Source: Escherichia coli (GTDB lineage: Bacteria; Pseudomonadota; Gammaproteobacteria; Enterobacterales; Enterobacteriaceae). Taken from it: DNA of 64,000 nt. Position numbers and translations under genes: made by a program. The DNA is taken from assembly GCF_003991155.1 (NCBI RefSeq), contig NZ_CP031293.1. One strand, 5' to 3'. Each line of letters opens with the position of its first letter. Position 1 is the stretch's first letter. The notes beneath the pieces are model-generated. The model made no database searches. It saw only the letters and a list, made by a program, of their open reading frames with translations, and was not told the origin of the DNA. Below are positions 1-45,469 of the stretch, one piece after another.

Positions 1-4273
<4,273 letters not shown>

Positions 4274-9898: not shown

Positions 9899-9974
9899 TG
9901 GTGGCCCCTGCTGGACTTGAACCAGCGACCAAGCGATTATGAGTCGCCTGCTCTAACCACTGAGCTAAGGGGCC
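9899..9974 (-). tRNA. ileX: tRNA with CAU anticodon, consistent with tRNA-Ile2 (lysidine-modified)
   Basis: Reverse complement reads GGCCCCTTAGCTCAGTGGTTAGAGCAGGCGACTCATAATCGCTTGGTCGCTGGTTCAAGTCCAGCAGGGGCCACCA: cloverleaf, CAU anticodon, encoded CCA. Confidence 0.85.
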
Positions 9975-10625: not shown

Positions 10626-12051
10626 TAATGCCAGTCAGTTAAGCAACTGACTGGCTCTTTTTCGGGGCTGTGGGGTATTTCCAGGGCCTCTCCTTTACCA
10701 CTCTCGGGAAGGCCCTTTCCCTTCTTGTCGGTAATTTCACAAGTTGTCCCATACTTGCAAGATCGCGCATCAGCTCCGGTATACGTCCCGGTGAAGCGCC
10801 CTGCAATGTCATCAGCATTCTCATCACCATTCCGCATGATTCTGAGAAACTCAGTTGATTCGGCCAGTAACCTTTCAGATGTTCCGCCATTTTAATCATC
10901 TGATATCTCACCAGATTATAAGCCAGTAAGACACCCCACAGCTCTTGCTCCACAAGCTCCGGTTTTTTACTTCTCAGCGTCAGCCTGCTCAGTTGCATCG
11001 TCTGTTTTATCTCCCTGTATCCCAGTTCGATTTCCCAGCGATGACTGTACAGATCCGCCATTTCTCCTCCGGGGAAGCGCATGGCGTCCGTCATCGACGT
11101 CAGCAGATGGCAGACTTTTCCTTTGCGCGTCACGGTCAGCAGGCGGGCTGTCACTTCATTTCCCAGTCCCGGCCACTTTTTTCGTGCCTGCGGGCTGGTT
11201 TTCAGCTTCACCAGATGATCGCCTTTACCCAGTTTTCTGATCTCTTCATATTGCGCTCCCTTTCTGAGAGGTATCATCCAGTGGCGGTGTTCTCCCGCCA
11301 GGCTCCAGGCATTTAACAGTCCCAGTGAGTAATAACCTTTATCCATTAACGTCAGAGTGTTATCGCCGGTTTGTTCTATAAGTTGCTCAGCAAGCTCATT
11401 TTCGCTGTTCTTCATCGTGCCGAAGGCTGCAGCCGTCAGCAGATGGCTGGTCAGTTCCATCTGGCAGACCATTTTGACCTGCGGGTAGAGCGCCGGGTTC
11501 CCGGCATGTGTCTGGCGGGGGAAGGCTGCATCGTTCTCTGGTGTATCCGGTGTGCGCCAGAACACACCATCGATGGCCAGCAAGGTCAGGCCGCACCAGT
11601 GCGGATGCGGCGTGGCGTTATGCCAGAGCTGCGCTGTTTTCGTGAACACGCGGCGGACAGCCTCACTTCCCAGGCGCTGGCGGGCCTGAATAACGGCACT
11701 GGGGGCAACGAAGGGGCGATTGCCCGGCAGCATGATGTCCAGGCGATTCACAATCTGGTGAAGAGGTTCTTTACGCTCAAGCGCCATGCCAACAATACAC
11801 CAGACCATCATTTCGAGGGGAAGACGGCGCTTGCGTAGCGTTACAGTACCTGATTCGGCAAGGCAACGAGAGATGAGTTCGGGGTCGAGGTAATCCCCCA
11901 GAGAAGTCAGTGGGTTACGCAGAGAATCGTAACGGGATACCAGATCAAGAGCCTGTCCAATGTGCATAAAAAAATCCGGAAACAAGTGAGCGTTTCCGGA
12001 TTCTTACACAGCCACTGGATCGGTCAACTGATCCTTAACTGATCGGCATTA
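10626..12051 (-). mobile_element. IS4 insertion sequence, copy 2 (1426 bp), same orientation as copy 1
   Basis: Identical to copy 1 except one nucleotide (copy 1 pos 2412 g vs copy 2 pos 11339 t); own 13-bp target-site duplication. Confidence 0.93.
10639..11967 (-). CDS. insG: IS4 transposase (442 aa)
   Basis: Same protein as copy 1 with Lys at ...TLTLMD[K]GYY... Confidence 0.9.
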
Positions 12052-23783: not shown

Positions 23784-25022
23784 TTAATCAGGCTTTGGAC
23801 AACGTTGTTCCTTCCAGCTGGCTACCGCCGCAATCCGCCGTCGGGTCAGCTCCTCGCGAATCTCCACACCTTTAAATCCCGCTTCAACGACGGCTTTTGT
23901 CGGCACTGACTGTGCCACTTCCCAGGCTTCGCGCAACCAGCGGCCTTGCGGGTAGTCGGCTGATTCAAAACCGGTTCTGCCGCGCACATCAGCCTCGCTG
24001 GTCAGCGCCAGTTGCTCGACACGCTGCGGTTTACGCCAGGCGTCGATGGAATCAAATAGTTTGACGATGGTTTTTGGGTTCAGCATTGGGAAGGTGTGGA
24101 TGAGATCGTGAAACTCAGCCACCAGTCTGGCTAAATCGCGAATTTCATTTGGCACGCGCAGACGCTGACAGAGTTGTTCCACTAACTTCACACCCGCCGG
24201 GCCATGACCATGATGACGCGGCCAAAGTTCTGGTGGCGTCAGTCCTTTACCGAGATCGTGGCATAACGTTGCGAAACGGACATCGACCTGCGGACTCAGC
24301 ATCGCCGCCATTGAGAGCGTCATTAAGGTATGAATACCCGTGTCGATTTCCGGATGCCACCTGGCAGGGGCCGGAACGCCAAACAGGGCGTCAATTTCCG
24401 GGAATAAAACGCGCAGTGCGCCGCAATCGCGCAGTACCTGGAAGAACACCTGGGGATTGCGGGTAGTGAGGGCGCTTTCCGTCTCTTTCCATACCCGTTC
24501 AGGCGTCAGGTGTTCCAGTTCACCCGCGTGGGTCATCTCGCGCATCAGCGCCAGAGTTTCATCGGCAATACGAAAACCGAGGTGGGCATAACGCGCAGCA
24601 AAACGCGCTACGCGCAACACGCGTAACGGATCTTCGCCAAAAGCGGGGGAAACATGGCGCAACAGACGATTTTGCAGATCGCCCAGACCGTTGTACGGGT
24701 CGATAATCTCGCCGTTATCGTCCTGGGCCAGCGCATTAATGGTCAGATCGCGACGCTTAAGATCATCTTCCAGCGTGACATCCGGTGCGGCATAGCAGGT
24801 AAAACCGGTGTAACCGGAACCGGATTTCCGTTCGGTACGTGCCAGTGCATACTCTTCATGCGTTTGCGGATGCAGAAACACAGGAAAATCGCGGCCTACC
24901 TGCTGGTAGCCCGCGTCGAGCATCTCCTGTGGCGTACTGCCGACCACCACCCAATCTCTGTCTTTGACCGGTAGCCCTAACAATGCATCCCGAACAGCAC
25001 CACCGACCAGATAAATCTTCAC
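23784..25022 (-). CDS. cca: tRNA CCA-adding nucleotidyltransferase with HD phosphohydrolase domain
   Basis: 412 aa [28 protein letters not shown]... Confidence 0.93.
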
Positions 25023-31605: not shown

Positions 31606-31694
31606 CCGGAAAGCGCTTCACAGTTCTCGCGTTGTGCCGGATAGACCTATTGACGCTGTTGTTTTTTCAACCTAAAGTAAAGGAACAAGGGTAA

Positions 31695-31830
31695 GGGAGG
31701 ATTTCTCCCCCCTCTGATGAGTTGTTAGTAAGTCGGGAAACTTAACAGTAACAACACAACCAGTATGATGACGAACTTCATCATAACCCTTTCCTTCTAT
31801 AAGGCCCCTTCCTCGGGAGGGGCTTTCCCG
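31695..31830 (+). ncRNA. sib: Sib-type antisense RNA (type I antitoxin) overlapping the ibs toxin ORF; ends at hairpin gcccct-tcctcggg-aggggc + ttt
   Basis: Fully antisense to the 19-codon ibs ORF; terminator-like hairpin at 31806-31825; location between hldE and yqiK matches the known sibD/sibE locus; exact ends not determinable by eye. Confidence 0.5.
31725..31784 (-). CDS. ibs: Ibs-family type I toxin, 19-aa hydrophobic peptide MMKFVIILVVLLLLSFPTY
   Basis: Manual translation of minus strand; ATG-ATG start, 19 hydrophobic codons, TAA stop; too short for the ORF track. Confidence 0.75.
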   Translation of the reverse strand: MMKFVIILVVLLLLSFPTY

Positions 31831-34810: not shown

Positions 34811-34852
34811 TATAACGGGCCTGATGGCCCGTTTTAGTGTTTGTATTAGATA

Positions 34853-35917
34853 CTAGTTATAGGTGATTTTCAGGATTACGTCTTTACTAAACGGTCCCTC
34901 AACAACCGTTTCTGCCGGGTTCGCACTCAGTTCTGCCCTGAATGGTGCGGTGACCGAAGGCGCACTAGACGATGAAAAAGAAGCAAATTGTGAGAAGCGG
35001 TTAAATTCCGTTGCTGTTCCATCGTTATGAAATATCTTCAATAGCAGACCATTACCTATATCCAGATGGCTATAATCACTCAAAATATCCGTAGTGAAAA
35101 AACTCCCTAAAATATTAAACTGCTCAGTACAGGCCGCACCCGGATCTTTGGTCATGACTACGCTAAACGTCTCACTCACGCTGGTATTTTTAATTGTTCG
35201 GGAATTTATTTTACCAAAGTCGACAACGCCATCAGCTGGTTCCAGATCAACATTAACAAAGCAGTCAAGGACATGAATGTTATTTAATCCGCGAATCCTG
35301 AAGGTCAGATTTTTATCTACTTCTATAGCACCTGCTCCGCTCATACCTTTAAATTCAAGTGTTATATATTCGTCAGGTAATACAAGTTTTTTATTTACTT
35401 TATTGGCATTTTTAGCTAGCTTAATATATAGCTGCACTCGTACTGGAAAAGTTACTGATAATTGCGGTTCAGGACCGCCACTACAGACTGCGGGCTTTTT
35501 GTAGCCATTCCCGAAGGTTCCGGCTCCTTTTATATCAATACATACAGGTGCTGCAATAGGTAGTGGAGATGTAGAATCATAATCAACCCCATTATAAGTT
35601 ACACCGAAAGTATAAGAGTTTTGATTATAAAAGTCTTGACCTGATGCTAACAACATCATTATATTTGCCCATGCAGATGGGGATTCTTCTCCTGGAGATG
35701 GGCCTGGTAGTGCATTATTACAGAAAACATTCATAAAATATTCACTGCTTTGCCAGATTTTATCACCTTTTTTACCATCGCTGGGGATAGAGATTCTTGG
35801 TACGTAACCAATGACAACGGTATTTCCACCTTCATGTTCAGCATAGCAGTCCATTGCCCATGCAGGTAATGAACTAAAACCCATAAAAAAAGTAATAACA
35901 ATTAACAAGTAGCGCAT
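34853..35917 (-). CDS. yqiI: Fimbrial adhesin-like protein (chaperone-usher tip subunit)
   Basis: 354 aa with signal peptide; last gene of usher operon; low GC. Confidence 0.8.
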   Translation of the reverse strand: MRYLLIVITFFMGFSSLPAWAMDCYAEHEGGNTVVIGYVPRISIPSDGKKGDKIWQSSEYFMNVFCNNALPGPSPGEESPSAWANIMMLLASGQDFYNQNSYTFGVTYNGVDYDSTSPLPIAAPVCIDIKGAGTFGNGYKKPAVCSGGPEPQLSVTFPVRVQLYIKLAKNANKVNKKLVLPDEYITLEFKGMSGAGAIEVDKNLTFRIRGLNNIHVLDCFVNVDLEPADGVVDFGKINSRTIKNTSVSETFSVVMTKDPGAACTEQFNILGSFFTTDILSDYSHLDIGNGLLLKIFHNDGTATEFNRFSQFASFSSSSAPSVTAPFRAELSANPAETVVEGPFSKDVILKITYN

Positions 35918-35918
35918 A

Positions 35919-36668
35919 TTATTGATCTCGGTTGGCTACAGAAATATTACAAATGTTATTTACTACAGGGCAGTTTATTTCATAAAAACTTAATCCACCA
36001 AAGTCATTGATATAACCCACCTGAAAAGTTGACGGAACATTTTTAAACTGCGTATTTGCATAGCTAAAAGGGGTTACCATTAAGCTTTGCGTTTGTGGTA
36101 ACATCGTTACCCCATTTGTTCCGATATAACCCAGCGTAACGTGATAAGGCATCTTATTGTTAAAGCGGATCGAACCGTCATTTCTACGAATGATTTCAAC
36201 TTTTTCGTAAGTCATTACCCCATCGTCTTCTAATTCAATGGCTTTTGGCCGCCAGAATAGTTTCAATGCGTGCTGCATAGTGACTTGCATCACATTTTTT
36301 TTATCTGTTTTGGGCGGTATTTCTCGCACGTTAAAATAGAAGAGCGTTTCTCTGTCTTTAGGAAGTTGAGCAATTTTTTCCTGAGTTATCATTCTTATTT
36401 GAATTTGCTCACTGGGATTTAAACGCACCATTGGAGGAACAGTGACAATAAAGTCACGCGATTTATTGCCTTTCGTATCTTCTATCCATGTTTGGGCCAG
36501 ATAGGGCAGGTTTTTACTTTGATTAGTAAGTTTTAATGCTTCGCCTTTATCTGACTCATTCATTATGATACGGGTACGATCCGGGATGATGGCACCCCAG
36601 GCAATGCTGCTCATACAGGAGAGTAATACTCCTGCTGCAATGATATTCTTTGTATTTAAGTAGCGCAT
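35919..36668 (-). CDS. yqiH: Periplasmic fimbrial chaperone (PapD-like)
   Basis: About 249 aa, signal peptide, PapD-like fold; ORF track start at 36677. Confidence 0.82.
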   Translation of the reverse strand: MRYLNTKNIIAAGVLLSCMSSIAWGAIIPDRTRIIMNESDKGEALKLTNQSKNLPYLAQTWIEDTKGNKSRDFIVTVPPMVRLNPSEQIQIRMITQEKIAQLPKDRETLFYFNVREIPPKTDKKNVMQVTMQHALKLFWRPKAIELEDDGVMTYEKVEIIRRNDGSIRFNNKMPYHVTLGYIGTNGVTMLPQTQSLMVTPFSYANTQFKNVPSTFQVGYINDFGGLSFYEINCPVVNNICNISVANRDQ

Positions 36669-36683
36669 TAGTTTCATCCTGAA

Positions 36684-39197
36684 TTAATTTTGGCTAATAC
36701 ACGGTAAAATAGCCGTTCCGGTGGTTAAGTTGCTGCTATTGGGTGGTTGAATAAAACAAGATTTGTCACCCCAGCGTAAAGCAAGTTTGTTATCATCCTG
36801 AATGCCGTTGAGGTATACAAAGCCGCCATCAGCAACCAGTCCTAATTCTTTGTGGCTGGTTTCATCTTTTACGCTAATCCCCAGTGGTGGATGACTACCA
36901 TCTGCCAGGCGAATAACCCCTATGATTTGGTAGCCCTTGCGGGTATCAAGTTTGGCGTAGCCAATAGCACCCTCGGTTAAGGTGGTGGTGATAACCGAGT
37001 TTTCGATATCCACATTTTCTGGCAGATTTCGGGTATCAACACTTAATGATGTTGTTATGTAACTGCTGACTGATGGAATAACTCCGATGCCATACCGATT
37101 AGTTACCGCGCGTTTATTGTTCAACGGAATATCTTCAGTGCCGTCTGCGTCGATCATAAAACGCGAGTCAGCACTACCGCTATAGTCGTGGAAAGCGGCA
37201 CCGTGGCGAGTCGCAGTGAATGAACCATTCCAACTGGCATTCAGAGAATAATAACTGTCTCGCTGTGATGTACCGGAGAGGTAGAGTCGACCGTTCTCGG
37301 TATTATGCTGATAACTGGCGCGTAGTGACGCTTTCATATCTTTGAATTCATCATTGTCGCCTGAAGCAGAAACGCTCCAGGAATTATTTCGATCGGAAGA
37401 GTCATACCACGAAGCAGTATGCGAAATCTCATTATCCTGATTTCGTTGCATACCATAGCTCAATGTTCTACTAGTTCCCCAGGGAATCGAAATATTTAGG
37501 TACAGTTGATCCTGGTTGTCTTCTTCCCAGTTTATTCGGCTAAATGTTAGAGAAGTGGAGACGTTTTTTAATGGCCCGATATCAAAATCGCGGCTAAGTG
37601 ATAATGAATAATTCACATTACTGCTGGCGTCCCAGTAAGTATTACGAGCCAAACTTACGTATGTATTTAACCTTAATGATTCAAGATACTGGTTAAACGT
37701 GACAATATAACTCTCTTTTTCATTCTGATAATTCGTGTAATGGTTAGTGTCATTGATATATTCATTCATTGTCACAAAGTTTTTATCAGAGAAACGGTAA
37801 CCAGCGAAAGTGAGCTGGCTACCGGTAGATTCAAAACGTTTTGAATAGTTAGCGCGGTAGCTATAACCCGTTTCTTTATCCTGATTATGCAACTGAGCAT
37901 CAGATCGTGTGACATCAAAAGATAATGAACCTAATGAGTTAAGGTTAAAACCAACGCCGGCAGCCAGAGATTGATAATCACGGTTTGTTAAAACTGAACC
38001 ACCATACAGGGATACATTGTTCAGCCACCCCCATGAGAATTCACCAGTCCAGAAGAAGGGTTGTTGTAAGGAATCACCACCAACGCTGGTCGGTTTACCC
38101 ATAGCAGTGGTGTAGCGAATCTGCCCTTTACGCGTCAGATAAGGAATACTATTAGATGCAACTTGCCATTGCGTAACGCGTCCGTCCTCTTCTTCAACCT
38201 TGACGTCAAGTTGCCCCTGTAATGTATTGAATAAATTGGTAATAGCAAATGGGCCTGGAGGAACATTTTCTTGATAAATAATACGGTTGTTCTGTGAGAC
38301 AGTGACCTTTGCATTCGTTTGTGCGACACCCGTGATTTGCGGTGCGTAACCACGTAGGTCTGGCGGTAACATATTCTCATCGCTTTTCAACGAAATGCCA
38401 GAAAAATGGAAAGAGTCGAAAATAGAGGATTCAGTATCGTATTGACCTATAGTTAGTTTTGCATTCATTGCTGGGATTGGGCGAAACAAATAAATACGCG
38501 GAAAATCCAGGTTGGTCGCCTGGCTTTTGCCATTGTTAAATGACTGATCGTACTGGTAATCAGTACGCAGGCGCCAGGCCCCAAGATTAACCCCAGCCTG
38601 CCCATAGGAACTTATATTTTGCGAATTATCGCCCTGATGTGGTGCATAATGAGAGGCATATAAATTGTAGTCAAGAAATGCCCCAGCAATACCATGATTC
38701 CAAAGTTCAGGAGGCGTCCAGTTTGCATCTTTGTATTTTAACCATGCCTGAGGTGCAGATATGGATAATTGCATTTTCCCTTTATCGAGATAAGTTGTAA
38801 TTTGTTTTTCTTTTTCGATAGGGTAACAACCATCGATCAGGTTTTGCTGAGTTTTTTCAATAAATTCATCAGTAAATCCTAATAATGTTAATTGCTCTGG
38901 TGTCACGCAAACTGCAGTTTGGTTATCAATTAATACCCATTGGAGGTCAAGGTGGATTGGCGTCCTCTTATTATTAATCAGAGTGCTTAGTGAATATTTG
39001 CCGACGGGTAATTGGCCATCAGTTTCAAATTGGGAAAGGTTAACGTTTTCACGATCTTCGGCTTCGATTAAATCTTTGTTGAATTCAACGGCATAAGCTG
39101 ACGCACAACCAATGATGATAACGGATAATGAACAATAAATATTTTTAATCAATTCGCTTATTGTGGTTAATTTTAATTTTTTATACATCTGATCCAC
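36684..39197 (-). CDS. yqiG: Outer-membrane fimbrial usher, intact reading frame
   Basis: 837-aa uninterrupted ORF with usher-type beta-barrel sequence; exact start uncertain. Confidence 0.85.
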   Translation of the reverse strand: MDQMYKKLKLTTISELIKNIYCSLSVIIIGCASAYAVEFNKDLIEAEDRENVNLSQFETDGQLPVGKYSLSTLINNKRTPIHLDLQWVLIDNQTAVCVTPEQLTLLGFTDEFIEKTQQNLIDGCYPIEKEKQITTYLDKGKMQLSISAPQAWLKYKDANWTPPELWNHGIAGAFLDYNLYASHYAPHQGDNSQNISSYGQAGVNLGAWRLRTDYQYDQSFNNGKSQATNLDFPRIYLFRPIPAMNAKLTIGQYDTESSIFDSFHFSGISLKSDENMLPPDLRGYAPQITGVAQTNAKVTVSQNNRIIYQENVPPGPFAITNLFNTLQGQLDVKVEEEDGRVTQWQVASNSIPYLTRKGQIRYTTAMGKPTSVGGDSLQQPFFWTGEFSWGWLNNVSLYGGSVLTNRDYQSLAAGVGFNLNSLGSLSFDVTRSDAQLHNQDKETGYSYRANYSKRFESTGSQLTFAGYRFSDKNFVTMNEYINDTNHYTNYQNEKESYIVTFNQYLESLRLNTYVSLARNTYWDASSNVNYSLSLSRDFDIGPLKNVSTSLTFSRINWEEDNQDQLYLNISIPWGTSRTLSYGMQRNQDNEISHTASWYDSSDRNNSWSVSASGDNDEFKDMKASLRASYQHNTENGRLYLSGTSQRDSYYSLNASWNGSFTATRHGAAFHDYSGSADSRFMIDADGTEDIPLNNKRAVTNRYGIGVIPSVSSYITTSLSVDTRNLPENVDIENSVITTTLTEGAIGYAKLDTRKGYQIIGVIRLADGSHPPLGISVKDETSHKELGLVADGGFVYLNGIQDDNKLALRWGDKSCFIQPPNSSNLTTGTAILPCISQN

Positions 39198-39247
39198 TTA
39201 TCATTAATCCGTTAATGATGTGGCCGGGCGAACCCGGCCAAATGCGA

Positions 39248-39799
39248 TTACTCGTAAGCAATCTTGTAGTCAGCCTGAGCGTAAACGTTGCCCGGGGTGG
39301 CATCTTTGCTTGGGGATTCCATACGAGCTTTGAAATTCAGTTCCTGATAGCTGTTGGTATTGTTGAACGTAATTACTACCGGAGTACCTAAAGTTACTTC
39401 GCCGCTCTGGCTGTCCAGAATACGTACGCCAACGCCAGTGGCGCCGCCGATTTCAGTTTCTTTGGTATTTTTCAGAAGATCAGACTGACCCGTCATGGTA
39501 TTTGCTGTAGTGAAAGTAACCTTCGCTTTTGAATAAGTAGTTCCACCCTGACTCAGCATGCAGTCCTGCAGGTGAATAGTGAAAGGTTCAGCCAAAGATT
39601 TCTGATCGCTTTTCAGTACGGTATCTGCTACTTCACCCAGATTTACAGTTAAATCTTCGTCACCTGGTTTAATAGAACATGGAGCAGAGATAACTTCACC
39701 TTTAAATTTAACAATACCGTGACCTTCATCAGCAAACACGTTATTGGAAAGAATCATTGCTACGCCAGCAACAAGAAGTGACTTTTTAAAAGCGGACAT
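39248..39799 (-). CDS. ygiL: Fimbrial major subunit-like protein
   Basis: 183 aa, signal peptide, fimbrial subunit C-terminal beta-strand. Confidence 0.82.
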   Translation of the reverse strand: MSAFKKSLLVAGVAMILSNNVFADEGHGIVKFKGEVISAPCSIKPGDEDLTVNLGEVADTVLKSDQKSLAEPFTIHLQDCMLSQGGTTYSKAKVTFTTANTMTGQSDLLKNTKETEIGGATGVGVRILDSQSGEVTLGTPVVITFNNTNSYQELNFKARMESPSKDATPGNVYAQADYKIAYE

Positions 39800-40082
39800 A
39801 ATATTCCTTTATATAAAGATAAGTAGAAAAGAGAATGATTAGTAACTGTTATTTAAGGACTGCTAATCATTGAAATATGATATTTTATTTTGTGTTTTTT
39901 ATAAAATTAGTTTATCTAAATATCGATTAAGTAAAACTTAAAAAATACATTGCAATTATACTTTCAATTGTACTCATTCATTTTTGTGATGGTTTTCTGA
40001 ATGGGATTACGCGATAAGGTAATAGAAAGCACTATAAATTAGAGGATTAATTCATAATTTACAGTGCATTAAAGACGAATGT

Positions 40083-40373
40083 TTACAGCGTTGGGGGGAG
40101 AGTCTCTGGATCTGGCTGCTTTTTGATCTCAGTACTGCGATTTTCCAGTTCGCTGATTCTTTGTTCAAGCAGCGCCAGTTTTTCACGAGTCCGTAACAGG
40201 ACTTGCGTTTGGACGTCGAACTCTTCACGGCTTACAAGGTCGAGGCGCGTCAGCTGCGCTTGTAGGGTTTGGCGGATTTTTTTCTCCACATCTTCCCCGA
40301 ACTCCCTGATTCCTTTAGGCATTGATTCGTGAACCTGGCGAGCGATTTGCTCAATTTTTTTCGGGTCAATCAT
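40083..40373 (-). CDS. ubiK: Ubiquinone biosynthesis accessory factor UbiK (BMFP family coiled-coil protein)
   Basis: 96 aa from [21 protein letters not shown]...; ORF track start 40433 is an upstream extension. Confidence 0.85.
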
Positions 40374-40494
40374 TGTAGTTTCCCTGTACTGATAGGTGTT
40401 GAGTGCCATTGTAGTGCGATAAGGGTAAGTCATAAACCAGAATTATGTGAAGCTATGCGTTGCTGCCGCTAATCATTAGCGTTATAGTGAATCC

Positions 40495-40700
40495 GCTTAT
40501 TCTCAGGGCGGGGCGAAATTCCCCACCGGCGGTAAATCAACTCAGTTGAAAGCCCGCGAGCGCTTTGGGTGCGAACTCAAAGGACAGCAGATCCGGTGTA
40601 ATTCCGGGGCCGACGGTTAGAGTCCGGATGGGAGAGAGTAACGATTCTGTCGGGCATGGACCCGCTCACGTTATTTTGGCTATATGCCGCCACTCCTAAG
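40495..40700 (+). promoter_or_regulatory. FMN riboswitch (RFN element) in ribB leader
   Basis: Conserved RFN core ...agggcggggcgaaattccccaccggcggtaaatcaactcagttgaaagcccgcgagcgctttgggtgcgaactcaaaggacagcagatccggtgtaattccggggccgacggttagagtccggatgggagagagtaacg... upstream of ribB. Confidence 0.85.
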
Positions 40701-40746
40701 ACTGCCCTGATTCTGGTAACCATAATTTTAGTGAGGTTTTTTTACC

Positions 40747-41400
40747 ATGAATCAGACGCTACTTTCCTCTTTTGGTACGCCTTTCGAACGTGTTGAAAAT
40801 GCACTGGCTGCGCTGCGTGAAGGACGCGGTGTAATGGTGCTTGATGATGAAGACCGTGAAAACGAAGGTGATATGATCTTCCCGGCAGAAACCATGACTG
40901 TTGAGCAGATGGCGCTGACCATTCGCCACGGTAGCGGTATTGTTTGCCTGTGCATTACTGAAGATCGCCGTAAACAACTCGATCTGCCAATGATGGTAGA
41001 AAATAACACCAGCGCCTATGGCACCGGTTTTACCGTGACCATTGAAGCAGCTGAAGGTGTGACTACCGGTGTTTCTGCCGCTGACCGTATTACGACCGTT
41101 CGCGCAGCGATTGCCGATGGCGCAAAACCGTCAGATCTGAATCGTCCTGGCCACGTTTTCCCACTTCGCGCTCAGGCAGGTGGTGTACTGACGCGTGGCG
41201 GTCATACTGAAGCAACTATTGATCTGATGACGCTGGCAGGCTTTAAACCGGCTGGTGTACTGTGTGAGCTGACTAATGACGATGGCACGATGGCGCGTGC
41301 ACCAGAGTGTATTGAGTTTGCCAATAAACACAATATGGCGCTCGTGACTATTGAAGACCTGGTGGCATACCGTCAGGCACATGAGCGTAAAGCCAGCTGA
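40747..41400 (+). CDS. ribB: 3,4-dihydroxy-2-butanone 4-phosphate synthase
   Basis: 217 aa [42 protein letters not shown]... Confidence 0.95.
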
Positions 41401-41430
41401 AAACCGCTGCTTAATTTACTGCCTTAATCA

Positions 41431-41462
41431 AGAAACCGAAGTTGTAGCAGGCTTCGGTTTTT
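41431..41462 (+). terminator. Rho-independent terminator of ribB
   Basis: gaaaccgaag-ttgtagcagg-cttcggttt followed by ttatttttc. Confidence 0.75.
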
Positions 41463-41661
41463 ATTTTTCCCTGCTATGCAAGATGTTAATTCCGCTTCTC
41501 TTTCTATGAGAAAATTTCATTAATATCAGGCATTCTTTTTCATTATGATCAAAATCATATAATTGTTCCGTTATTATGCGACCATATGAATATATCCGAA
41601 AAAGGATATGTGAAATTTATACGCTAAATGTTTAGTATTGTTAAATATTAAGGGTAAAAGG

Positions 41662-41832
41662 ATGTTTATCGCCTGGTACTGGATTGTATTGATTGCTCTG
41701 GTTGTGGTGGGTTATTTCCTGCATTTGAAACGTTATTGTCGGGCGTTTCGCCAGGACAGAGACGCACTGCTTGAAGCGCGGAACAAATACTTAAACAGTA
41801 CGAGAGAAGAGACAGCCGAAAAGGTAGAATAA
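41662..41832 (+). CDS. Small single-pass membrane protein (56 aa from ATG; track version starts at upstream TTG 41638); identity not confidently recalled
   Basis: MFIAWYWIVLIALVVVGYFLHLKRYCRAFRQDRDALLEARNKYLNSTREETAEKVE: one hydrophobic helix plus charged tail; weak SD; lies in ribB-zupT spacer. Confidence 0.45.
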   Translation: MFIAWYWIVLIALVVVGYFLHLKRYCRAFRQDRDALLEARNKYLNSTREETAEKVE

Positions 41833-41889
41833 GGCTTTCGTGAAGCTGGCAGAAGTTGTCCATGCGCTGGACAACTTCTGATGTTGTTT

Positions 41890-42663
41890 TTAACCAATTC
41901 CCGCCGTTTGTAGCAGCACTAAACTGAATCCCATCACTGACATTCCACATAGTACGCCATAGCTGGGGTTATTATTAGGGTCAATCTCTTTGGCGAGCGG
42001 CATTAATTCATCAACCGAGAGCGCCACCATAATTCCTGCAACCGCCGCCATGATTGCCGCCATGACCACCGGGGAAATCATGCTACCGAGGATTAACCAC
42101 GCCAGCACACCACCAAGAATTTCTGCTAGTCCAGAAATTCCCGCCCACAGAATCGCGGTGCGTTTAGACCCCGTTGCCGCATAAACCGGGCCTGCCACTG
42201 CCAGACCTTCAGGGATATTGTGCAACGCGACGGCCAGTGCGATGCCAAATCCCAGCTCCAGGTTGCTGCTCGCCGTGACAAAGGTGGCAATCCCTTCCGG
42301 GAAGTTATGCAGACTGATGCCGAGAGTGAGCAGAATGGCTGTGCGCTTGATCGATTTTGGCAACGGCTGCACCGATTTTTGCATTAAATCCTGCGGATGA
42401 GCATGTGGCAACATGCGGTCCAGGCCAAAATAGCCAAGCAGACCGAAGATAAACATTCCATAACCCAACACAGGCGACATTCCTTCAGCTGCTAGTGCGG
42501 CAGGAAGCATTTCCATTAATGAGATGAGCAACATGATCCCCGCCGCAAAACCTAGCGAAAACGCCAGTAAGCGGTTCGAGGGTTTTTGCCCGAGAACGCC
42601 GAGAAACGCGCCAATAAACGTGGCTGCCCCCGCCAGTATGGTCAGAATGAGAGGTACTGACAT
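41890..42663 (-). CDS. zupT: ZIP-family zinc transporter
   Basis: 257 aa from [20 protein letters not shown]... Confidence 0.9.
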
Positions 42664-42778
42664 CGACAACTCCTTATAAATCTTCACCTTCAGGCAGATC
42701 GTCAAAATAACTGATGATCATCATCATTGTTATCCGGGTTCTTACTCCGCCGAACAAGCGTATTGTGAGGATATCAAA

Positions 42779-43594
42779 ATGACACCTTTAGTTAAGGATA
42801 TCATCATGTCTTCAACACGTATGCCAGCATTGTTTTTAGGTCACGGTAGTCCGATGAACGTGCTGGAAGATAATTTGTATACCCGCAGCTGGCAGAAGTT
42901 GGGGATGACATTGCCACGCCCGCAAGCGATTGTGGTGGTTTCGGCTCACTGGTTTACCCGTGGAACAGGAGTGACCGCGATGGAGACGCCGCCCACGATT
43001 CATGACTTTGGTGGCTTCCCGCAGGCGCTGTACGATACGCATTATCCTGCTCCGGGTTCGCCTGCGCTGGCACAGCGTCTGGTTGAGCTGTTAGCGCCGA
43101 TCCCGGTGACGCTGGATAAAGAAGCCTGGGGCTTTGACCACGGCTCGTGGGGCGTGCTGATTAAGATGTATCCTGACGCTGATATCCCGATGGTGCAGTT
43201 GAGTATCGACAGTAGCAAACCTGCCGCCTGGCATTTCGAAATGGGGCGCAAACTGGCAGCGCTGCGAGATGAAGGAATAATGTTGGTCGCCAGCGGTAAC
43301 GTGGTGCATAACCTGCGCACAGTGAAGTGGCACGGTGATAGTTCACCGTATCCGTGGGCGACGTCGTTTAATGAGTATGTGAAAGCGAATCTGACGTGGC
43401 AAGGGCCAGTGGAACAACATCCTCTGGTGAATTACCTCGACCATGAAGGTGGCACGTTATCGAACCCAACGCCAGAGCATTATTTGCCGTTGTTGTATGT
43501 GTTAGGTGCGTGGGATGGGCAGGAGCCAATTACCATTCCGGTTGAGGGTATAGAAATGGGCAGCCTGAGTATGCTGTCGGTGCAGATAGGCTAA
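42779..43594 (+). CDS. ygiD: Extradiol ring-cleavage dioxygenase class III (DOPA-dioxygenase-like) YgiD; true start may be the internal Met at 42806
   Basis: ...MPALFLGHGSPMNVLEDN...SAHW...HN motifs of LigB-type dioxygenase. Confidence 0.85.
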   Translation: MTPLVKDIIMSSTRMPALFLGHGSPMNVLEDNLYTRSWQKLGMTLPRPQAIVVVSAHWFTRGTGVTAMETPPTIHDFGGFPQALYDTHYPAPGSPALAQRLVELLAPIPVTLDKEAWGFDHGSWGVLIKMYPDADIPMVQLSIDSSKPAAWHFEMGRKLAALRDEGIMLVASGNVVHNLRTVKWHGDSSPYPWATSFNEYVKANLTWQGPVEQHPLVNYLDHEGGTLSNPTPEHYLPLLYVLGAWDGQEPITIPVEGIEMGSLSMLSVQIG

Positions 43595-43631
43595 CAATTA
43601 CCGGATGGCGAGTGCCATCCGGTATCGTGGC

Positions 43632-44792
43632 TTATTCAACAAAAATATGTGGATAAAACCGAGACATATCCTGGGTGATCAATGCACGGTCTTCACGAAT
43701 GCCAATTCCGGCGGGTTGATCGTTCACCAGCCAGCTACCAATCAGCATATAGCTGTCGCCGAATTTCGGTAACGGGTGGAATTGCTGAACAATCATCCCT
43801 TCTTCGCCATACGGACCTTCCGCTGCTTCAATGGTTTTGCCGTTCTCAATGATCGACACGTTTGCGCCTTCACGGGAGAAGATCGGTTTAACCACATATT
43901 TTTCCATTTGCGGATGATCATCTTCCGCAAAATAAGCGGGCAGCAGGTTCGGGTGATTCGGGAACATCTCCCACAGTAGCGGTAGAAGTGCCTTGTTGGA
44001 GATAATGCTCTTCCACGCCGGTTCCAGCCAGCGTACGCCTGCATCCTCCAGCTTGGTTGAGAACATCTCACGCAACATAAATTCCCACGGATACAGTTTG
44101 AACAGGTTGGAAATTACCTGATCCTGTAAATCCGTGAACTGACCTTTTTCACCTAACCCGATATCATCGATGTAGAGGAACTCAGTAGCAATTTCAGCTT
44201 CCGTTGCGCAGTCCTGCAAATACTGAATGGTTCCGCGATCTTCCACCGTGTCGCGACAGCAGGTGAGATGCAGCAACTGGAAGCCATACTGTTCACGCAG
44301 CTCAACGAAGCGATCGATCAGTTTTTCTTGCAGACTGTTAAACTGGTCGCTGCCCTCCGGCAAGTTACCGGCGTTAAGCTGATCTTCCAGCCAGATCCAC
44401 TGAAAGAACGCCGCCTCGTATAGTGACGTTGGCGTATCGGCGTTATTTTCCAGAAGTTTAGGTTCACCAGTGCCATCCCACGCCAGATCAAGACGCGAAT
44501 AAAGCGATGGCTGGTGCGTCAGCCATGACTGGCGCACAAAACTCCAGGTGTGTTTTGGAATGCGGAATTTGGTCATCAGCTCATCGCTGGCGATCACTTT
44601 TTCCACCACTTTCAGGCACATCTGGTGCAGTTCGGCGGTGACTTCTTCCAGCTTTTCAACCTGGGCGAGGGTCAACTTGTAGTAAGCATCTTCACACCAG
44701 TACGGCTCGCCGTACATGGTGTGAAAATTGAAACCGTATTCGTGGGCTTTCTCACGCCAGTCCGGGCGCTCGGTAATACTGACTCTTTCCAT
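43632..44792 (-). CDS. ygiC: Glutathionylspermidine-synthase-like ATP-grasp protein
   Basis: 386 aa [32 protein letters not shown]... Confidence 0.85.
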
Positions 44793-44797
44793 CGGTA

Positions 44798-45469
44798 TCA
44801 GCCACCCATTGAACGAGAAGAGGTACCGGTTGCACTACGCTGCATAGTGCTTTGTTTGGCAACAGATTCACCAAAACCGCCACGGGTAACGGTAGTGGTG
44901 GTCGCCGGTTTTGGTGCCATTGCCGTCTTCGGTACGGTCATGGTGCGGCCTGGCTGGGCTGCGCCATAGTTTTTACCCGTCGCGTCGGTATATTTACCGT
45001 AAGCCGGACTGGCTGGGTTTTTCGAGGAGAACAGCGGCTGCTGTGCAAATCCCGCGCCGCCGCCCATCAGACGCCCCATCATGTAACCGGCCATCAGCGG
45101 CATCCAGAAACTCCCGCTGGATTGCTGGGCCTGCGCCTGGTTTTCTGGTGCCATGCCAGCCTGGGCTGGTGCCTGCTGGCACTGACCTTCACCAAATTCA
45201 GCAACACAGTCTTCACGGGTGGCGTATTTCGGCGCAGTACGTTCGGCTTCTTTCAGCGCATTGTTGTACGCGGTGGTACATTCGGCGCTTTTGCCTGGGT
45301 TTGCAGCTGAACAGTCGTCAGCATTTTGATAGAGAGACACTGTTTCATCACTCTTTTCACAGCCAGCCAGCATAAAAACAGTGGCAACCGCGAGAGCGAC
45401 TGGTGTCAGATGGCGTGCGCTCCAGTTTTTGCGGAACGATGCGTGGCGTATGGATTTTGTCCGTTTCAT
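44798..45469 (-). CDS. ygiB: DUF1190 family lipoprotein-like protein YgiB
   Basis: 223 aa from [16 protein letters not shown]...; operon with tolC. Confidence 0.8.

Follow-up and report, generated by a model that had tools for sequence, protein, structure and literature searches.

The window, by which we mean the whole stretch of 64,000 nucleotides of Escherichia coli DNA analysed here, carries on its minus strand four intact open reading frames in the order ygiL, yqiG, yqiH and yqiI, located between ubiK (yqiC) and glgS and collinear with the corresponding region of MG1655 and of annotated wild strains (Table 1). Profile searches identified in this cluster the components of a chaperone-usher operon: a three-domain usher, a PapD-like chaperone and an adjacent pilin subunit. 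YqiG is tiled from end to end by Pfam PapC_N (residues 38–180, E value of 5.7e-31), Usher (198–750, 1.4e-190, profile positions 3–549 of 549) and PapC_C (762–814, 9e-12), and YqiH (maximal ORF in the ORF listing, 35919–36677) contains both Ig-like domains (PapD_N, 1.3e-35; PapD_C, 1.2e-7). YgiL is recognized by Pfam Fimbrial (1.9e-21) and by the NCBIfam equivalog model NF007276, with 384 bits versus a cutoff of 189. Residues 22–218 of YqiI match PDB 9rwe_A (2e-120), a structure for which we found no describing publication in a literature search, and the C-terminal 136 residues match Pfam Fimbrial (positions 19–151 of 151) with 23 bits, below the cutoff of 25.6 bits (E value of 1e-4). YqiI is therefore a putative two-domain tip adhesin, with a receptor-binding domain at residues ∼22–218 and a pilin domain at residues ∼219–354.

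Table 1. Features of the ygiL-yqiGHI locus, in window coordinates.
Feature	Position	Strand	Basis or detail
Whole variable block, 5,301 bp	34842..40142	.	Alignment with the empty locus of FDAARGOS_497
yqiI, putative two-domain tip adhesin, 354 aa	34853..35917	-	PDB match and weak Pfam Fimbrial match
Antisense intragenic promoter in yqiI, TTGACC-18-TATATT	35636..35665	+	Consensus scan, 10/12 matches
yqiH, periplasmic PapD-like chaperone, 249 aa	35919..36668	-	Pfam PapD_N and PapD_C
yqiG, outer-membrane usher, 834 aa from the annotated ATG	36684..39188	-	ORF and Pfam
Unoccupied IS2 target site, GTTAT on the coding strand, yqiG codons 23-24	39118..39122	-	MG1655 alignment
Two stem-loops in the ygiL-yqiG spacer	39200..39240	-	GGCCGGG-uucg-CCCGGCC, then an AU-rich hairpin
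ygiL, putative major fimbrial subunit, 183 aa	39248..39799	-	ORF, Pfam Fimbrial and NF007276
ubiK-ygiL intergenic region, presumed promoter and regulatory sites	39800..40082	-	23.7% GC; promoter role inferred

An earlier note on this DNA had described an uninterrupted usher ORF of 837 codons, which corresponds exactly to the maximal ORF (36684–39197) read from the first GTG. The annotated start is the ATG at 39188, three codons downstream of the GTG at 39197, and the resulting protein of 834 residues shows 100% identity to WP_000277103.1, an entry that RefSeq annotates as an intact usher. A hidden frameshift or truncation in yqiG could be ruled out on this ground, and because the reading frame is continuous and the three Pfam domains span the whole usher. 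The usher had been said to follow ygiL directly; the two genes are separated by a spacer of 59 nt with two hairpins. The predicted fold of this spacer RNA has an energy of -22.9 kcal/mol (z = -3.3 versus shuffled sequences), and we infer that the stem-loops may attenuate transcription or stabilize the mRNA, thereby setting the ratio of subunit to usher. A consensus scan of the ubiK-ygiL intergenic region returned one weak sigma-70-like match (39905–39877). The antisense promoter sequence within yqiI matches an oligonucleotide of Warman et al. 2020 (PMC7229825), 'yqiI 2.2', which was studied as a spurious promoter repressed by H-NS; yqiI itself was treated in that work as a horizontally acquired, H-NS-silenced gene.

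Comparison with K-12 placed the usher gene in context. The earlier note had placed in MG1655 an IS2 at the ygiL/yqiG boundary that makes yqiG a pseudogene. The locus does contain IS2I (1,331 bp) in MG1655, where yqiG is a two-fragment pseudogene in the RefSeq annotation, but the element is not at the boundary: it lies 71 nt inside yqiG, at codon 24 in the signal peptide, flanked by a GTTAT target duplication, and W3110 has the same insertion. Alignment to MG1655 revealed neither IS2 nor the GTTAT duplication in the window yqiG, that is, neither of the two features (IS2 after nt 71 and the duplication) that define the K-12 IS2::yqiG pseudogene allele. When IS2 is spliced out of MG1655 yqiG, the encoded protein is 100% identical to the window YqiG, the two SNPs that distinguish the genes (at 38028 and 37944) both being synonymous. 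YgiL and YqiH are likewise identical to the MG1655 proteins, and YqiI differs by two substitutions, Y79S and A186T. Upstream of the IS2 site the DNA is 99.97% identical to MG1655, and the aligned block downstream of it, reaching through yqiK, contains 118 mismatches. As the IS2 is absent, and because of these mismatches, the single SIB RNA (versus two in MG1655) and the two IS4 copies that set the window apart from MG1655, the DNA comes from neither MG1655 nor W3110, as had been proposed.

We are highly confident that the window operon is the intact wild-type allele of the K-12-type Yqi-like chaperone-usher operon ygiL-yqiG-yqiH-yqiI. The K-12 operon (b3043, b3046-b3048), assigned to the Yqi-like type by Wurpel et al. 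(2013), has the same locus and gene order, and the position between ubiK and glgS together with the full amino acid identity of YqiG to its IS2-spliced MG1655 counterpart places the window operon in that type; K-12 derivatives (MG1655, W3110 and others) differ by the 1,331-bp IS2I and the 5-bp duplication. The earlier suggestion that the operon may be functional is thus justified at the gene level, because all four genes are intact. An intact Yqi-like operon is nevertheless ordinary, and both the K-12 IS2::yqiG allele and the split between Yqi and Yqi-like types are already in the literature; the entry in Archer et al. 2011 (PMC3032704) reads 'ygiL-yqiGHI, pi, K-12: IS2::yqiG; W, B, Crooks: +'. 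That listing, along with StdB as the top NCBIfam match, is consistent with placement in the pi clade (Nuccio & Baumler). The Salmonella Std system provides the best named NCBIfam models (usher StdB, 695 bits; chaperone StdC, 151 bits), but both fall far short of the equivalog cutoffs (1,289 and 370 bits), which makes the Std proteins relatives rather than orthologues.

To see how the locus varies, we scored the state of the IS2 site and the overall coverage of the operon in 5,426 complete E. coli genomes. The exact K-12 IS2 junction was present in 367 of them, and every example seen was a K-12 derivative. The site was uninterrupted in 2,906 genomes, which is about half of the survey and corresponds to 2,906 of the 3,276 genomes carrying that operon segment, and the operon was missing from ∼2,150 (about 40%). 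Other lineages have insertions of their own: an IS interrupts yqiG in TA8571 and ET490 (at about nt 1557 and nt 1953), an IS lies downstream of a frameshifted yqiI in ECONIH4, IS903B is found in the operon of ES11 and ECO3183, and ISKpn26 in that of CT29. As these non-K-12 insertions are at other positions, the K-12 site could be ruled out as an IS2 hotspot in unrelated lineages. Such recurrent hits on the operon would fit a function that is selected for weakly or intermittently.

The low GC content that had been noted at 34.8–39.8 kb, and taken to suggest horizontal origin, was evident on measurement (41.1% for 34853–39799 versus 51.9% elsewhere in the window), and the GC3 of the block genes (0.32–0.39) is far under the window background. 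The low-GC zone is wider than noted, spanning roughly 33.5–40.1 kb and including yqiJ and glgS, two genes found in all strains examined. In operon-free strains, 72 bp replaces the block and ubiK abuts glgS; the left junction of the block is inside ubiK (after codon 77), and the glgS terminator hairpin marks the right one. We found no direct repeats exceeding 7 bp on its two sides, its gene content is limited to the four fimbrial genes with no integrase or mobility gene, and no tRNA is adjacent to it, the sole tRNA of the window being at 9902–9974. The block therefore shows the atypical composition and the presence/absence polymorphism of a classical genomic island, but not the integrase, tRNA att site and direct repeats. 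The simplest reading, supported by the compositional drop and by the sharp replacement of the block by 72 bp where ubiK abuts glgS, is that the block was of foreign origin at some earlier time.

A different reading, for which we see a substantial chance, though less than an even one, is that the block is ancestral to phylogroups A/B1/D/E and not recently acquired, the empty state having arisen by replacement or deletion. The lack of integrase, tRNA and flanking repeats would fit this history, as would the empty locus itself: its 72 bp are unique sequence, including an alternative 3' end of ubiK, so that neither state of the locus is a simple insertion into or deletion from the other. Moreover, Wurpel et al. 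(PMC3559732) assigned the Yqi-like type to these phylogroups as clade-specific rather than sporadic, and the operon-bearing genomes of our survey fall into two identity bands (at least 99% and 95–99%) typical of vertically inherited core-like DNA. The composition of the block, so far below the window background, argues against it, and so does the mosaic structure of the window. The best match of positions 1–25000 is strain 1517k, which is devoid of the yqi operon, and positions 25001–50000 are 100% identical to many wild isolates, for example 2016C-3878 and AR Bank #0349. With its first 25 kb closest to an operon-free strain, the window shows that homologous recombination of the flanks carries the block from one lineage to another.

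By analogy with characterized chaperone-usher systems, YqiH would cap the subunits in the periplasm and hand them to the YqiG usher pore, and YqiG would polymerize YgiL into a fibre with the two-domain adhesin YqiI at its tip. K-12 laboratory strains are unable to assemble this fimbria because IS2 splits yqiG within the signal-peptide codons; the window strain retains full coding capacity because the insertion either never occurred or was precisely lost. Like other AT-rich accessory fimbrial operons, the operon is probably silenced by H-NS in laboratory conditions and may be expressed only in particular niches. In the literature searched, we found no published receptor or phenotype for the K-12-type (Yqi-like) fimbria.

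We consider it rather unlikely that the operon, although its genes look intact, is cryptic, i.e. an effectively non-functional, decaying remnant that is never, or hardly ever, expressed, with the K-12 IS2 as one instance of continuing neutral loss. The independent insertions at differing positions in other lineages, the internal stop that we found in yqiH of ET490, the absence of the operon from about 40% of genomes and the presence of a known H-NS-repressed spurious promoter in its AT-rich DNA can all be explained in this way. However, 2,906 of the 3,276 segment-bearing genomes have no interruption at the IS2 site close to the yqiG start, both SNPs between the window and MG1655 yqiG are synonymous, and Yqi-like transcripts have been detected in STEC, at higher levels in HUS-associated strains (PMC6033998). 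In addition, the structure of the N-terminal domain of the adhesin has been solved, and the protein therefore folds.

A related operon occupies a neighbouring locus in other strains. The ExPEC fimbria Yqi, or ExPEC adhesin I (EA/I) (Antao et al. 2009; 'Ygi' of Spurbeck et al. 2011), is likewise AT-rich and encodes a subunit, usher, chaperone and adhesin, carries a hairpin of its own, unlike that of the window, in the subunit-usher spacer, occurs mainly in phylogroup B2 and reportedly excludes, and is excluded by, the Yqi-like type. The yqiD-ribB spacer of the window has no fimbrial cluster and is collinear with that of MG1655, which also lacks one. On a speculative note, to which we attach a low probability, the Yqi-like (ubiK/glgS) and ExPEC Yqi (yqiD/ribB) blocks that flank ribB-ubiK might be alternative cassettes swapped by recombination of shared flanks. 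The Yqi-like block would then bring its own ubiK 3' end, so that differing UbiK C-termini (96 and 99 aa) would be strictly linked to the fimbrial type; a distinct receptor specificity of the intact Yqi-like fimbria would be selected in non-B2 lineages, and the recurrent IS knock-outs would reflect niche-specific counter-selection, not neutral decay.

That the window operon is itself this virulence fimbria of APEC and UPEC is extremely improbable and was ruled out despite the common yqi gene names, the matching four-gene layout and recognizable homology, since the ExPEC cluster lies between yqiD and ribB (in Nissle) and not between ubiK and glgS, the proteins are only 38–59% identical (usher 55%, chaperone 51%, major subunit 59%, adhesin 38%), Antao et al. 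2009 describe K-12 as lacking their cluster, and Wurpel et al. treat Yqi (B2) and Yqi-like as distinct types (PMC3559732). The published adhesion, lung-colonization and glycan-binding data belong to ExPEC Yqi/EA-I and not to the Yqi-like operon.

The window thus derives from a wild, non-K-12 E. coli that keeps the full coding capacity for a 'cryptic' fimbria that K-12 cannot make. At the ygiL-yqiGHI locus it is K-12 that is the exception, and the main value of this finding is in correct annotation: the Yqi-like operon should not be equated with ExPEC Yqi/EA-I, and functional data obtained for the latter should not be carried over to the former.

The genes ygiL, yqiG, yqiH and yqiI form four consecutive minus-strand ORFs in the ORF table covering 33-42.5 kb. 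The 837-codon usher ORF reported in the earlier note is indeed continuous and retains all three usher domains, with the Usher match spanning profile positions 3-549 of 549 (Pfam); 837 codons is the maximal ORF, and the annotated ATG at 39188 yields 834 aa. The subunit ORF scores above the NCBIfam cutoff as a YgiL equivalog. yqiG follows ygiL as its adjacent gene on the same strand, though not directly, as had been stated, but after a 59-nt spacer. The domain content points to a minimal chaperone-usher machine, in which the chaperone YqiH would stabilise subunits via donor-strand complementation, the usher YqiG would polymerise YgiL by donor-strand exchange and YqiI would form the fimbrial tip. 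Full-length YqiI had no match in a Pfam scan of the four ORFs; the solved chain 9rwe_A ('Fimbrial protein') matches residues 22-218 (E 2e-120, ~90% identity), three more related structure entries match less strongly, and the last 136 residues produce a Pfam Fimbrial hit near the threshold. The 9rwe_A and C-terminal matches are consistent with YqiI being a two-domain adhesin.

Features of the fimbrial locus and of the rest of the window.
Feature	Position	Strand	Description
ygiL	39248-39799	minus	fimbrial subunit; ORF 183 aa; Pfam Fimbrial E 1.9e-21
yqiG	36684-39197	minus	complete usher; ORF 837 aa from GTG; PapC_N, Usher, PapC_C
yqiH	35919-36677	minus	PapD-like chaperone; ORF 252 aa; both PapD domains by Pfam
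yqiI	34853-35917	minus	ORF 354 aa
GTTAT (IS2 site)	39118-39122		single copy
Promoter-like site	35636-35665	plus	antisense in yqiI; TTGACC-18-TATATT
Variable block	34842-40142		5,301 bp
ubiK	40083-40373	minus	block junction at 40142/40143
SIB RNA/Ibs toxin module	31650-31799	plus	between hldE and yqiK
FMN riboswitch	40495-40643	plus	upstream of ribB; Rfam RF00050, 120.9 bits
IS4, first copy	~1699-3124		transposase ORF 448 aa, minus strand
IS4, second copy	~10626-12051		transposase ORF 448 aa, minus strand

In MG1655, yqiG (b3046) is annotated as a pseudogene of two fragments divided by 'insertion sequence:IS2I' (3186096-3187426), as the earlier note stated, and W3110 carries the same IS2. The element had been placed at the ygiL/yqiG boundary; its site is instead 71 nt inside yqiG, in signal-peptide codons 23-24 (between …SLSVIIIGCASAYA and VEF). 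The window-MG1655 alignment consists of two blocks meeting exactly at the IS2I point, and the GTTAT found once in the window is duplicated either side of IS2I in MG1655. When IS2 and one GTTAT copy are removed from the MG1655 gene, its translation is identical to that of the window YqiG, the only two nucleotide differences in yqiG (38028 and 37944) being synonymous; a hidden yqiG frameshift and an MG1655 locus without IS2 are both excluded. YgiL and YqiH are identical to their MG1655 counterparts, YqiI differs by Y79S and A186T, and the usher is 100% identical to WP_000277103.1, an annotated intact usher from a clinical isolate.

A probe of 200 bp with the IS2 site at its centre matched 3,276 of 5,426 complete E. 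coli genomes; 2,906 of them have the site unbroken, and in ~364 it is divided between two places. A probe across the K-12 yqiG/IS2 junction was fully covered in 367 of the 5,426, and the matches listed are K-12 derivatives (e.g. ER1709, a CV601 derivative and 'K-12'). An intact site is therefore the usual condition, with the IS2 allele marking the K-12 lineage. In unrelated wild strains, the Yqi-like operon has been disrupted independently, and at differing sites, by elements of the IS2/IS3 family, IS903B and ISKpn26: an IS3-family element lies ~1,557 nt into yqiG in TA8571 and another ~1,953 nt into yqiG in ET490, where yqiH additionally contains an internal stop; IS2 lies downstream of a frameshifted yqiI in ECONIH4; IS903B disrupts the operon in ES11 and ECO3183, and ISKpn26 does so in CT29. 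In AR13438 (genome match H123), the match is ~1.3 kb longer than the query and the annotation divides the usher into two parts.

When yqiG was used in a sensitive DNA search, 998 further records appeared whose usher is only ~65% identical, among them APEC strains and derivatives of Nissle 1917; Nissle carries the cluster of this usher between yqiD and ribB, at a distance of two genes from the K-12-type site. Protein identity between the window and the ExPEC type is 55% for the usher, 51% for the chaperone, 59% for the major subunit and 38% for the adhesin. The different locus and the 38-59% identities rule out the ExPEC Yqi/EA-I cluster and make the window operon Yqi-like, in line with the absence of yqi/EA-I from K-12 (Antao et al., 2009; PMC2771359) and with the description of 'Yqi' (B2) and 'Yqi-like' (A, B1, D, E) fimbriae as closely related, mutually exclusive and located at different loci (Wurpel et al., 2013; PMC3559732). 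The chicken-lung colonisation and glycan-binding data belong to the ExPEC Yqi type, not to the Yqi-like operon.

GC content is 41.1% in the operon versus 51.9% across the remainder of the window (direct counts), GC3 is 0.32-0.39 for the four fimbrial genes and the ubiK-ygiL intergenic region has 23.7% GC; the low GC noted at 34.8-39.8 kb is thus confirmed, although the composition profile gives a slightly wider zone (~33.5-40.1 kb). The operon is absent from ~2,150 genomes, and ubiK directly adjoins glgS in the operon-free FDAARGOS_497, 1517k and Nissle; alignment with the empty locus of FDAARGOS_497 places 72 bp there instead of the variable block. The right junction of this block is the glgS terminator hairpin; the left one falls inside ubiK, after codon 77, so that UbiK has 96 aa in five of five operon-bearing strains examined and 99 aa, ending …ELEARNNSVADLQSPPAIPPIDKAE, in three of three operon-free ones, with differing tails of ~20 residues. 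Across these eight strains, the form of the UbiK C-terminus seems to follow whether the fimbrial block is present. A classical mobile island is ruled out, as a search of the block for an integrase, an adjacent tRNA and flanking repeats >7 bp found none. Since both states contain sequence of their own, the two do not differ by a simple insertion or deletion. The horizontal origin proposed from low GC is nevertheless supported by the GC drop together with the presence/absence polymorphism, the block being replaced by 72 bp elsewhere.

Upstream of the IS2 site (window 39118-45213) the sequence is 99.97% identical to MG1655, against an average of 98.4% in the aligned block downstream of it, with mismatches clustered at 31.0-33.5 kb (yqiK and neighbours) and only five within 34.8-39.1 kb, a distribution that suggests a recombination breakpoint near yqiJ/yqiK. 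The window has one SIB module versus two in MG1655 (sibD/ibsD and sibE/ibsE), which explains ~400 alignment differences at 31.5-32 kb. Positions 1-25000 best match strain 1517k, itself without the yqi operon, and the window is therefore a mosaic. The two IS4 copies share the same orientation, differ by one base and are separated by 8,927 bp; they bracket ebgR-ygjH-patA-aer-nfeR-nfeF-tRNA-mug; one lies between ebgA and ebgR and the other between mug and rpoD, each with its target duplication (CAGCACTGTCCG; CACCGAAAAGGTG). MG1655 is not known to carry an IS at either site. The FMN riboswitch is expected at its locus.

The ygiL-yqiG spacer folds as two hairpins (-22.9 kcal/mol, z = -3.3), which, by analogy with other fimbrial operons, may set the subunit:usher ratio; the ExPEC-type operon also has a hairpin in this spacer, but a different one. 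Upstream of ygiL there is only a weak promoter-like match. The strongest such site in the region, near-consensus, lies within yqiI and coincides with 'yqiI 2.2', an intragenic promoter studied as H-NS-repressed in a horizontally acquired gene (Warman et al., 2020; PMC7229825), and transcription of the Yqi-like type has been observed in STEC (PMC6033998). Judged by its sequence, the operon is thus genetically competent, though probably silent in standard culture.

The K-12 IS2::yqiG allele was already known from the RefSeq pseudogene and from a 2011 table ('ygiL-yqiGHI, pi; W +; K-12 IS2::yqiG; B +; Crooks +'; Archer et al., 2011; PMC3032704), as was the split between Yqi and Yqi-like from 2013. 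In agreement with this published picture throughout, the intact operon here represents a known operon in its common wild-type form.
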